Assembly (NCBI GenBank): GCA_964016885.1
Contig: OZ024741.1
Coordinates: forward strand, 144,150,001-144,214,000
Length of the DNA stretch: 64,000 nucleotides
Reading direction: 5' to 3'
Source of the DNA: Eledone cirrhosa
Lineage: Eukaryota
The notes beneath the pieces were generated by a model. The model searched no databases. It was not told where the DNA came from and worked only from the letters and a program-made list of their open reading frames with translations. A program made the position numbers and the translations under genes. Below, in pieces: positions 45,908 through 55,371 of the stretch; positions within the stretch are counted from its first letter, which is position 1; each line of letters begins with the position of its first letter.

Positions 45908-46647
45908 GATTAGAAGAAGAAATAGTATATATTTTAATATCTGATTGATTCTATAGACATGATTTATGATATAATGTTCTGATCTTTTGATTTTAATTTA
46001 TTAATTCTTCATTGAGCTTAAAAGTGAACAGTTGCAATATATATATATCTTTAATTTAATTTTATGTATATGATAACCTTTATATTTAATAATCTCCCAA
46101 TTGGTTGAGATTAAATTTGGCGATATATGGCTGCGCTTTCTAGCAGCAAGCCTACCCGCCGTAAGCAACCAATCACACGCTATCTCTCTGGCTGGTACAC
46201 AGCTACATAGCGATCTTAGCCATTTTTGAATCTAATTTTGGCGCGGTCGGTTTGAGAAACTAAATGTCTTATTTTGAGTTTATCTCCTGATGAAACCTAA
46301 CTCTGGAATTCCATATTATTTGGATGTCCTAAATAAGGAAGAAACCATGGTAGAGATATAATTACGGTATGTGCGCATTTCTTCTAAGTTTAATTTTACT
46401 ACTAATTATGTGTGGTTGATAGTATATTTGATCGGATTCCGCATGCTGCCGAAATGTTTGATAAATAGTGGAACGGAGCCGCCGCGAAGAGGCTACAATC
46501 AATTGCTTGTCAGAGATTTCCCCGTAAGAAAATTTATTCTTAAAGCTTGCTAGATTTGATTTTGTATATGGTTAATTATGCTGATTAGAAGAAGAAATAG
46601 TATATATTTTAATATCTGATTGATTCTATAGACATGATTTATGATAT
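45908..46647 (+). mobile_element. Hammerhead-bearing repeat family H2: 1.1 tandem units of 675 nt
   Basis: ~65-bp direct repeats at 45908 and 46583 flank a unit with one hammerhead; permuted inverse copy at 54721-55371. Confidence 0.8.
46282..46357 (+). ncRNA. Type I hammerhead ribozyme (H2)
   Basis: atctc-CTGATGA-[47 nt stem II]-GAAA-ccatgg-TA-gagat. Confidence 0.8.
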
Positions 46648-47429
46648 ATATATATATATATATATATATATATATATATATATAGTTATACTTTGGGAGG
46701 GTCATGCTGCCAATAAAAACACACGCACCTGTTTGTTTTCACTTCAATTTATTATGTTTCCGGTTGGTTGGTTCGTTCGATAACGGGAAGATTAGTTATT
46801 TGGTCACACATTCTGTGACCTTCTCAGCGACTAGGTTTTTATTTTGTGTCTCTCCTTTGTTCTGTCCTACACCACCTTGTTTTTGTGTGTAGTGTGTTCT
46901 GTCCTACACATCCTTAAACCTCTCTTGTGTGTGAAAAAAATGTCAGAGAGTACGGAAATAGAACCGTGGAAATGGCCAGTCACAGCTTGCATATATATAT
47001 ATATATATATATGAATGTACGTATTGTATATTTAATAATATACTGTATGTTTATTAAAAAAAACATTTTGTAGGCCTTTCGCTATGAATTTAAGGTAGTG
47101 ACCATAGTCACATACCAAGCTTCAGCAAAAACAAAGGGGAACAACAGACGCGTTTCTTGCTGTTTAGCGGTTATCAAGGTTATATACCACTCTCTGTTTT
47201 TACTGTGAGCTGTAGAAGCTGGATTCCTATAGAATACCAATTATGTTTATGAGCTGTCGATAAAATAAAGTACCAGTAATGTACTGGTAATTGCTGGCCT
47301 TGTGCCAAAAATAGAAACAATTATGTTTATGGGCTGTTTAAACTCATTAACATACAGAGCTGTTGCCGGCCCAGCAACAATTAGAAATATATATAATGGA
47401 ATTTTTGTTTATACTATATATTAAACTGA

Positions 47430-47703
47430 AGGTGTGTGACTTAGTAGTTTAGGTATTCGGCTGACGATATTGATTTAGATTCCTAGCGGCGCACTGTGCT
47501 CTTGTGCAAGACACTTCATTTTCATGTTCCACTCAGCTGGACAATAGTTGCACCTATAATTCAAAGAACCGGCCTTATCCCACCCGGTATCACACCAAAT
47601 CTCTCTGTTAACTATGTTAGGTGTATACTTGTTTTGGGAATGTTCCGTCAATTAAACGTCAATTTCAAACTATAGCACCCTTCGTCGGAACTGATGGAGC
47701 CCC
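47430..47703 (+). mobile_element. SINE family S2 (decayed)
   Basis: Head gtgacttagtagtttaggtattcggc, body gcaagacacttcatttt..ccactcagctgg, shared 3' module. Confidence 0.6.
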
Positions 47704-51600: not shown

Positions 51601-53279
51601 GGAAGGGATGTATATATTGTAGAGCTGGGAGAAGGATGTATATATTGTAGAGCTGGGAGAAGGATGTATATATTGTAGAGCTGGGGGAAGAGGTGTATAT
51701 ATTGTAGAGCTGGGAGAAGAGATGTATATATTGTAGAGCTGAGAGAAGGGATGTATATATTGTAGAGATGGGAGAAGAGGTGTATATATTGTAGAGCTGG
51801 GAGAAGAGATGTATATATTGTAGAGCTGGGAGAAGAGATGTATATATTGTAGAGCTGAGAGAAGGGATGTATATATTGTAGAGATGGGAGAAGAGGTGTA
51901 TATATTGTAGAGATAGGAGAAGGGTGTGTATATATTGTAGAGATGGGAGAAGAGGTGTATATATTGTAGAGCTGGAAGAAGGATGTATATATTGTAGAGC
52001 TGAGGGAAGAGGTGTATATATTGTAGAGCTGGGAGAAGAGGTGTATATATTGGAGAGCTGGGGGAAGGGACGTATATATTGTAGAGCTGGGAGAAGAGGT
52101 GTATATATTGTAGAGCTGGGAGAAGAGGTGTATATATTGGAGAGCTGGGGGAAGAGATGTATATATTGTAGAGCTGGGAGAAGAGGTGTATATATTGGAG
52201 AGCTGGGGGAAGGGATGTATATATTGTAGAGCTGGGAGAAGAGGTGTATATATTGGAGAGCTGGGGGAAGGGATGTATATATTGTAGAGCTGGGAGAAGA
52301 GGTGTATATATTGTAGAGCTGGGAGAAGAGGTGTATATATTGTAGAGCTGGGGAGAAGAGGTGTATATATTGGAGAGCTGGGAGAAGAGGTGTATATATT
52401 GTAGAGCTGGGAGAAGAGGTGTATATATTGGAGAGCTGGGAGAAGAGGTGTATATATTGTAGAGCTGGGGGAAGGGATGTATATATTGTAGAGCTGGGAG
52501 AAGAGGTGTATATATTGTAGAGCTGGGGGAAGGGATGTATATATTGTAGAGCTGGGAGAAGGATATATATATTGGAGAGCTGGGAGAAGAGGTGTATATA
52601 TTGTAGAGCTGGGAGAAGAGGTGTATGTATTGGAGAGCTGGGAGAAGAGGTGTATATATTGTAGAGCTGGGAGAAGAGGTGTATATATTGGAGAGCTGGG
52701 GGAAGGGATGTATATATTGTAGAGCTGGGAGAAGAGGTGTATATATTGGAGAGCTGGGGGAAGGGACGTATATATTGTAGAGCTGGGAGAAGAGGTGTAT
52801 ATATTGTAGAGCTGGGAGAAGAGGTGTATATATTGGAGAGCTGGGGGAAGGGATGTATATATTGTAGAGCTGGGAGAAGAGGTGTATATATTGGAGAGCT
52901 GGGAGAAGGGATGTATATATTGTAGAGCTGGGAGAAGAGGTGTATATATTGGAGAGCTGGGGGAAGGGATGTATATATTGTAGAGCTGGGAGAAGAGGTG
53001 TATATATTGTAGAGCTGGGAGAAGAGGTGTATATATTGTAGAGCTGGGAGAAGAGGTGTATATATTGTAGAGCTGGGAGAAGAGGTGTATATATTGTAGA
53101 GCTGGGAGAAGAGGTGTATATATTGGAGAGCTGGGAGAAGAGGTGTATATATTGTAGAGCTGGGAGAAGAGGTGTATATATTGGAGAGCTGGGGGAAGGG
53201 ATGTATATATTGTAGAGCTGGGAGAAGAGGTTATATATATTGGAGAGCTGCTAGAAGAGGGTGTATATATTACAAAGCT
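48613..53279. repeat. 29-bp tandem satellite (~160 units), consensus GAGCTGGGAGAAGAGGTGTATATATTGTA
   Basis: Direct inspection; variant units recur at a 1564-bp offset. Confidence 0.97.
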
Positions 53280-54720
53280 AATCTATATTGTTGAATACCC
53301 AACGGCCTGTCTAGTGTCTGATCGATCAAAGCAGATCTGTGATTGTATCAAAGTCCTTTCACAAAACACAAAAGCAGTTAAATAATCCTCATCCTTCAAA
53401 GAAACAAATAATTATAATGAAGTAATCGTGTTTAAAGAGTTCTAGCTTTTAATCTATATAAAAGATACAAACGGAAATAACATTTTAAGGAGACAATTAA
53501 TAAAAGTTAAAAAACAACAACATAGAATCAAAAGCAAGCCATCCCATCTCAGACGTAGACACAACCCATTGAAGCAAGAGGAAATAACCCAATAGTTTTG
53601 ACTTCGAATAAAAATCACATTTAATTCTTGATAATCGTCACTTTATTTTTATATGTCCTGTAAACATATTTTAAGTATTAAAACATGCAAGCTTTTAAGC
53701 CTAATGATCTTTAAAATTTGGAAATGATGCATAGTCAAACAAGACTTTTATTGTACACGCGTATATGTAGGCACAAACACAGGCACACACACACACACAC
53801 ACACACACACACACACACACACACACACACACACACACACACACACACACACACACACACACACACACACACACACACACACACACACACACACGCACAC
53901 ACACACACACACACACACACACACACACACACAAGTATAATATGGAGCTAACCGACCAGAGATGTGCAAACTACGTTTTAGTCGGTCGGTTGTGATGCAG
54001 ATAAAATGAATTGTTCAACGACATGTATAAATGGTATATATTATAGAGTATTAAATAGATAGAAGGCCATATGCAGGTTTATTTTTATATCCATGATACA
54101 TATTTTGCTGAGGTCTACGGCTAAATAGCTTTCTTCTTACCCATTCCGATAGCCTGACCTCGCCAGATGGTATAAAAAAACCCCTTGAAAATTATTTCAC
54201 ACAATTTAAAAACTTAAACATATTTCATCAATTGAAACAGCCTGTAAACTCCTACTTTAGCACACAAAAATCAGCCTGAGTGCAAAAATCCATGTCTAAG
54301 CTGTTACAGTACTGTCTCAAATTCCGTTGAGAATCCGATGATCATTGATTAATAATAAATCCATAACATGCAAAACATATACAGGGGCATCATAGACACA
54401 CACACACACACACACACACACACACACACACACACACACACACACACACACACACACACACACACATATAGATATAGGCCGAACCAGACAGGAAAAGACT
54501 TACCGAATCTTTTTCTGTCTGATGAAACGACAACATGGTGGGGATGGTGGGAACGGTAGAGTTTCGAGTTACTGAATCAAATATGTGTTACGTAGTATTA
54601 TGATTCTGAGAGCTTTTCTCCCTTTCGTTAAAGCCTAAACACACACATACACACATAAACACCAACTATATAAGTACATATACATATACATATACATATA
54701 CATATATATATATATATATA

Positions 54721-55371
54721 ATATAAAGGTTAACACATACATAAAGTTATAGATATATATATGTTGCAACTGTTCACTTTTAAGCTCTATGAAGAATGAA
54801 TAAATTAAAAAATCAGAGCATTATATCATAAATCATGTCTTTAGAATCATCAGATAATAAAATATATACTATTTCTTCTTCTAATTAGCATAATTAACCA
54901 TATAAAAAATCAATCAGAACAAGCTATAAGAATAAATGCTCTTATGGGGAAATCTCCGACAAATAACCGAACGTAGCCTCTTCGCGGCGGCCCCAGTCGA
55001 GTATTTATCCAACATTTCGACAGCATGTAGAAACTGACTAAATATACCATCAACCATACACAATTAGTTGTAAAATTAAACTTAGAAGAAATGCGCACAT
55101 ACCGTAATTATATCTCTACCATGGTTTCTTCCTTATTTTGGACATCCAAATAATAGGAATGTCCTGAGTTAGGATTCATCAGGAGACAAACTCAAAATCA
55201 GACATCTAGTTTTTCAATCCGATCCCGCCAAAATTAGATTAAAAAATGGCTAAAAATCGCTATGTGGCTGTGTTCAAGCCAGAGAGAAAGAATGTGATTG
55301 GTTGCTTACGGCAGGTAGGCTTGCTTCTAGAAAGCGCAGCCAAATATCGCCAAATTTAATCTCAACCTATT
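54721..55371 (-). mobile_element. Family H2 copy: about one circularly permuted monomer
   Basis: Reverse complement starts at the equivalent of ~46099, runs through the hammerhead and unit junction, and ends at the equivalent of ~46083. Confidence 0.8.
55112..55187 (-). ncRNA. Type I hammerhead ribozyme (H2)
   Basis: gtctc-CTGATGA-atcct..ggacat..atgtcc..aggaa-GAAA-ccatgg-TA-gagat. Confidence 0.8.

Follow-up and report, generated by a model that had tools for sequence, protein, structure and literature searches.

The window considered here is a stretch of 64,000 nucleotides of Eledone cirrhosa DNA (NCBI GenBank assembly GCA_964016885.1, contig OZ024741.1, positions 144,150,001 to 144,214,000 of the forward strand), which carries two copies of H2, a repeat with a unit of 675 nt and a hammerhead ribozyme motif. 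Judged by the ends of its copies here and elsewhere in the genome, H2 very probably belongs to the retrozymes mobilized by Penelope-like elements (PLEs). Positions within the unit are counted from window position 45912, and the features of the two copies are as follows:

45908..46648, plus strand: copy 1 of H2, 1.10 units, 5'-truncated, with its 3' end at fixed site 1 (unit 58-62)
45908..45973, plus strand: segment A, ending at site 1, the same as 46583-46648 at 66/66 bases
45974..46086, plus strand: the "tail" of ~113 nt, from site 1 to site 2 (unit 171-177), delimited by the 3' end tallies
46087..46280, plus strand: segment B, with CCAAT at unit 186 and 258 and TTGGCGC at unit 327
46281..46358, plus strand: type I hammerhead of copy 1, with a predicted cut after 46352 (unit 441)
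46359..46582, plus strand: segment C, predicted to form with segment A a long rod that immediately precedes site 1
46649..46684, no strand: (TA)n target at the 3' end of copy 1
54667..54719, no strand: TA/TATG microsatellite at the 3' end of copy 2
54720..55372, minus strand: copy 2 of H2, 0.98 unit (unit 187 to 175), with its 3' end at fixed site 2
55111..55188, minus strand: hammerhead of copy 2, with a predicted cut between 55117 and 55116
55373..55455, minus strand: 83-nt fragment of another hammerhead family, abutting the 5' end of copy 2 head to tail

The period of 675 nt that the initial annotation gave for copy 1 is borne out by the match between segment A and its repeat, and the hammerheads it reported in both copies were recovered as type I elements, with cores at 46287 (plus strand) and 55182 (minus strand). 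Copy 2 had been read as a permuted near-monomer on the minus strand and, placed on a doubled unit at ~88% identity, it does run from unit 187 round to 175, a full turn minus 12 nt. The tail is thus internal in copy 1 and terminal in copy 2. What the initial annotation overlooked is the (TA)n at the 3' end of both copies, which sits at sites fixed across the family. No open reading frame (ORF) of at least 120 aa lies over either copy. H2 ends at TA-flanked priming sites, is non-coding, and shows nothing that would assign it by a long terminal repeat (LTR), a primer-binding site or a polypurine tract, the last two of which were not sought separately. The CCAAT and TTGGCGC sequences of segment B, which we take to be promoter motifs, possibly mark an internal promoter. 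A circular fold of the unit, with its rod of segments C and A, gives a z of -3.2 against 25 shuffles.

In the 3.0-Gb genome there are 2784 candidates for the H2 unit, and exact 25-nt patterns within segment A match at 782 and 2628 places. Unit length varies from 657 to 690 nt, and copies run from 1.1- to 45-mers. A sister subfamily, 70-75% identical to H2, has kept both 3' sites. The sample on which the counts below are based comprises 88 H2 loci (129 arms) and 64 sister-subfamily loci (97 arms), i.e., 226 arms at 152 loci, drawn from the first places listed and lying mostly on contigs C1-C3. Arms shorter than 44 nt, low-identity hits and TA-only hits were dropped, and a 45-unit array was handled apart. 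Three near-identical duplicates (L075-L077) are counted three times, and 30 best-hit loci, chosen for full length, are excluded from every count, save that L003 among them re-entered as L036.

The 3' ends of the 226 arms fall into two classes, with 124 at site 1, 72 at site 2 and 30 elsewhere. Site 2 lies at unit ~171-177, its class being widened to 158-182 in H2 and to 145-186 in the sister subfamily, which contains an internal TA run. A (TA)n flank accompanies 161/196 canonical ends vs. 6/30 other ends. At unit 125-137, H2 has a perfect TA run of 12 nt in which none of its arms terminates; therefore, the sites are not picked by microhomology alone. The 5' ends, on the other hand, occupy 151 distinct positions in 195 arms, with a near-constant stop rate of ~0.002 per base. 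Copy 1 belongs to the site-1 arms and copy 2 to the site-2 arms, which explains the apparent permutation: it is the product of two fixed start sites and random truncation. The initial annotation had argued from two different start points to a circular or multimeric RNA. The part of that argument that concerns the template stands, while the two end points do not speak for random permutation on a circle, as two fixed start sites of reverse transcription suffice. It had also named fixed termini of the genomic copies, or a segment A that always runs on into a coding element, as what would refute its reading, and half of the first condition applies: the 3' termini are indeed fixed at two sites (196 of the 226 arms), the 5' ends alone vary, and continuation into a coding element was seen in no sampled locus. 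That copy 2 closes almost on itself, which had been given some weight, counts for little. The idea of stopping after one full turn was dropped, as the surplus of 5' ends that H2 shows at unit 165-190 (10 vs. 3.3 expected) comes from a window chosen post hoc and is not repeated in the sister set (3 vs. 2.3).

At 56 loci two arms stand head to head, and all 42 pairs with two canonical ends combine site 1 with site 2 (under the best independent model, p 2e-13); the other 14 carry a non-canonical end. The arms of a pair overlap in sequence and are ~94-100% alike. Lone H2 arms mostly end at site 1 (43/51), and the suggestion that lone site-2 copies are always paired with a foreign arm found no support.

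The same signature occurs in coding PLEs of this genome, which holds more than 10,000 GIY-YIG candidates. An autonomous PLE family with a reverse transcriptase (RT) and a GIY-YIG domain at the C-terminus (59 scored copies, 98-99% identity) terminates before (TA)n at two sites separated by 68 nt, gives rise to 1.0-1.45-mers and inversions, and combines both ends in 10 of 11 scorable pairs; in a second PLE family the sites lie 47 nt apart and 2/2 pairs are mixed. A cysteine cluster ahead of the nuclease, which we take to be a Neptune-type mark, suggests that the first family is of that type. This assignment also draws on the account of Neptune elements in Craig et al. (2021; PMC8557442). No hammerhead was detected in the first family, no homology was found between it and H2 (nhmmer E 5.8 or worse), and H2 has no ORF for an RT plus GIY-YIG of its own. 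A young intact Neptune-type PLE with a unit of 4679 nt (L202, G000:C1:399390400-399400300, and family) has ORFs of 409 and 775 aa that overlap and meet at a T6-A run, possibly a -1 frameshift site; the run is T6 in 20/21 matches and T7, giving a fused frame, in one, and no hammerhead was found in this family. Taken together, the end signatures make it likely that H2 is a non-LTR retrozyme and a non-autonomous PLE, copied in trans by a Neptune-type RT.

H2 could instead be the terminal repeat (pLTR) of an autonomous PLE, its copies being 5'-truncated remains. PLE terminal repeats are known to bear hammerheads and tails (PMC4209133; PMC8557442), and Xenopus retrozymes are described as resembling pLTRs (Li et al., 2026; bioRxiv 10.64898/2026.07.22.740005). 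However, long arms run round into H2 again, reaching 9 and 45 units, and no H2 locus has a same-orientation PLE ORF directly upstream, save where one is nested behind a TA tract, which makes this origin of the copies very improbable. H2-like copies beside PLE ORFs (L148/L190, L189, L180), considered as candidate pLTRs, proved to be separate or nested insertions. A PLE terminal repeat beyond those found may nevertheless be the evolutionary origin of H2.

The 45-unit array (~30 kb, G000:C1:92985600-93016030, L094-L097) shows a higher-order periodicity of 5 and of 6 units, because of which it is taken to have grown at the DNA level; the same periods rule out arrays as rolling-circle products. Its units differ by 2.8-4.9%, and it retains a site-1 end and an inverted site-2 arm. 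These periods also speak for a satellite that spread without RNA, through DNA-level events such as extrachromosomal circles and unequal crossing over. Against such a satellite stand the two fixed sites of the 3' ends, the random loss of 5' sequence, the TA targets, the strict rule on the ends of head-to-head inversions and the recurrence of this signature in coding PLEs. It is very improbable as a general account: it is largely refuted for the dispersed copies and holds for array growth only.

The hammerhead of both copies consists of stem I (TATCTC/GAGATA), CUGAUGA, GAAA, a palindromic stem III (ACC-AU-GGU) and GUA at the cut site. Helix II is 47 nt long and bulged, and stem III has 3 bp with a palindromic loop, a form described as cleaving as a dimer (PMC4209133). 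An Rfam scan of the window left the hammerheads without a match at the gathering threshold, and the 95-nt motifs, when folded in isolation, do not surpass shuffled sequences (z -0.7 and -1.2). The motif is supported despite these nulls because its core is conserved and covarying. Core conservation is 98.5-98.9% vs. 92-96% in segments B, C and the tail (segment A reaches 98%, but it served as the search pattern), and the catalytic core (CUGANGA plus GAAACCAUGGUA) is intact in 58/66 units. Across 23 diverse sequences, 89.5% of cells are paired in the proposed structure and 8 pairs show two-sided changes, a score equalled by 3/500 shuffles, which ignore relatedness. Three arms (L120, L136, L291) begin exactly at the first base past the predicted cut, where 0.31 are expected (p 0.004), and two further arms are compatible with such a start; in a 13-nt window at the cut the excess is smaller (5 vs. 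2.1 and 3 vs. 1.4 expected). These data suggest that the hammerhead probably cuts in vivo.

A cleaved linear monomer would permit at most 296 nt of copying from site 1 and ~410 from site 2. It was rejected as the template, as 114 of the 121 arms that reach the predicted cut read through it and 53/195 arms are longer than one unit; a circular or multimeric template is therefore needed. Starts at the cut site together with frequent read-through further indicate that most templates were re-ligated or uncut. That the RNA template was circular appears slightly better than an even bet, and circles are slightly favoured over uncut multimers: the ribozyme is conserved and covarying, 5' ends do not pile up at the candidate transcription start, and long overlaps are identical in some loci. 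For other retrozymes of animals, circular RNAs have been demonstrated (Cervera and de la Pena, 2020; PMC7229834); in H2 a circle is deduced from the genomic copies.

In the proposed mechanism, multi-unit loci would be transcribed, the hammerhead would cut the transcript, probably as a dimer, into monomers, and a host ligase would close these into circles. A PLE protein would then nick both strands of a (TA)n tract, and site 1 would serve for priming on one strand and site 2 on the other, via 4-6 nt of TATA microhomology. Each complementary DNA (cDNA) would extend backwards and fall off at random, so that a single cDNA would yield a truncated or 1.x-mer copy and two joined cDNAs a head-to-head insertion; long arrays would expand later at the DNA level. 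This account as a whole, a PLE-copied retrozyme made from circular RNA, seems somewhat more probable than its failure. A more specific proposal, that each head-to-head insertion is one reaction in which a dimeric Neptune-type RT works on a single circle with an obligate assignment of strand to site, and in which RTs hop between RNAs (as at copy 2 and L114), is tentative and rather doubtful.

Several observations weigh against this account. Both pairs that join different families break the end rule, L114 with two site-1 ends and L011 with two site-2 ends; L011, which joins two subfamilies, belongs to the unscored best-hit set. L114 itself, in which TA tracts on both sides enclose an H2 arm and a 1.5-kb PLE 3' fragment arranged head to head, also counts in favour of a PLE-mobilized retrozyme; the remainder of the PLE is absent from the 2.5 kb beyond, and both one event and a later deletion would fit the join. 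Among ~70 PLE loci, taken from the more than 10,000 GIY-YIG candidates, none was found to have an H2-like terminal repeat. Repeat differences inside one insertion match family polymorphisms in 19-21% of cases vs. 8.5% for new mutations, an excess from which it follows that some insertions used more than one template unit; of 78 such differences 12 are an end artefact and 27 lie in CpG context, and the rest cluster in L138, L071, L066 and L120. L291 passes one cut and begins at the next, as would fit a partly cut linear dimer. The remaining two points, the same partial tandems in the hammerhead-less autonomous PLE family and the dominance of uncleaved RNA among the templates used by an anole PLE in vitro (Frangieh et al., 2024; PMC11167929), bear on the template. 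They favour a reading in which the same PLE machinery acts on uncut or partly cut linear read-through of tandem loci, while the hammerhead cuts rarely or acts elsewhere. Arrays of 9 and ~45 units exist as possible sources for such transcripts, some multi-unit insertions are internally mixed, and a few arms stop exactly at the cut. Against uncut templates, 5' ends are scarce at the candidate transcription start (unit 316-375, 3 vs. 8.1 expected), several long overlaps are identical (252/252, 150/150) whereas array units differ by 2.8-4.9%, and a catalytic core so strongly conserved is less easily accounted for. Linear read-through is thus a serious contender, albeit one that is probably wrong.

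Other hammerhead repeats and retroelements accompany H2. The 83-nt fragment at the 5' end of copy 2 has the same orientation as that copy and is joined to it with 1 nt of microhomology, likely by a template switch or a deletion. Its source, with 1320 candidates, is a fourth hammerhead family with a long helix II and a period of ~480 in L303 (L303-L316). A second family forms a head-to-head pair at window 55456-56024, with cores at 55688 (minus strand) and 55763 (plus strand) and both arms ending in TA, and occurs also in L183. The third, with a period of ~428 nt, lies at 56693-57379 (core 57074, plus strand; TA end) and has relatives in L164 and L180. At L171:6300-6760, a 459-nt hammerhead repeat with a long helix II sits inside the TA tract that follows a PLE; at this locus and also in L190, several families that target TA are nested within each other's tails. 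A two-ORF long interspersed nuclear element (LINE), presumably L1/Tx1-like, occupies window 8338-13704 (minus strand); its endonuclease/RT frame is open over 1153 aa and has a frame of 634 aa upstream, and its decayed relatives are found as fragments at 3-3185, 14496-15818 and 25487-33141. Window 22908-25371 (plus strand) holds a LINE RT frame that we take to be RTE-like, 673 aa long and with zinc fingers at its C-terminus, and 48615-53279 is a 4.7-kb tandem array of a 29-nt-based repeat.

As animal non-LTR retrozymes are portrayed in the relevant passages of two papers (PMC7229834; bioRxiv 10.64898/2026.07.22.740005), H2 shares with them a non-coding, low-GC unit with one type I hammerhead, a range from dispersed monomers to long arrays, and co-occurrence with PLEs. 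Its unit exceeds the 170-400 nt used as a size criterion by Cervera and de la Pena (2020) but lies within the 51-972 bp of Li et al. (2026); its helix II of 47 nt contrasts with 4 bp in animal non-LTR retrozymes; and its fixed priming sites and end rule are reported in neither set of passages. With endonuclease-positive (EN+) Neptune-type PLEs, as described by Craig et al. (2021) and Arkhipova et al. (2013; PMC3846280), it has in common 5' truncation, partial tandems, an inverted 5' copy, a tail at one end and microsatellite targeting. Unlike them, H2 has no ORF, and its tail measures ~113 nt rather than 30-40 bp; none of the PLE terminal repeats examined in this genome matches it in sequence. 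The closest biochemical parallel is offered by Poseidon PAc of Anolis (Frangieh et al., 2024), in which two internal start sites define a tail, both target strands are cut and extended, and targets are AT-rich. In vitro, however, PAc is described as showing no start-site difference between strands and no target homology, whereas the two arms of every canonical H2 pair differ in their site, and TATA microhomology is found at the end of both sites.

Mobilization of retrozymes by PLEs has been proposed before (PMC7229834) and argued from distribution and pLTR homology (bioRxiv 10.64898/2026.07.22.740005), and a tail at one end of inverted copies has been described for autonomous PLEs (PMC8557442; PMC3846280). 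A literature search, which left most subscription papers and early Penelope reviews outside its coverage, returned no end-rule count for any retrozyme. H2 is therefore a real element of a known kind with a clean mechanistic signature, of which the strict two-site rule is the useful part. The integration of animal retrozymes has so far been a hypothesis (PMC7229834); H2 shows a PLE insertion signature directly, and does so beside young intact PLEs bearing the same signature. The 42/42 rule turns the known remark on a tail at one end into a strict constraint, unlike what PAc does in vitro. As a 675-nt substrate with known start sites, H2 is suited to tests of how inverted repeats arise from PLEs and of whether circles serve these as templates. 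If each head-to-head insertion does prove to be a single reaction on one circle, retrozyme circles would be true PLE substrates.

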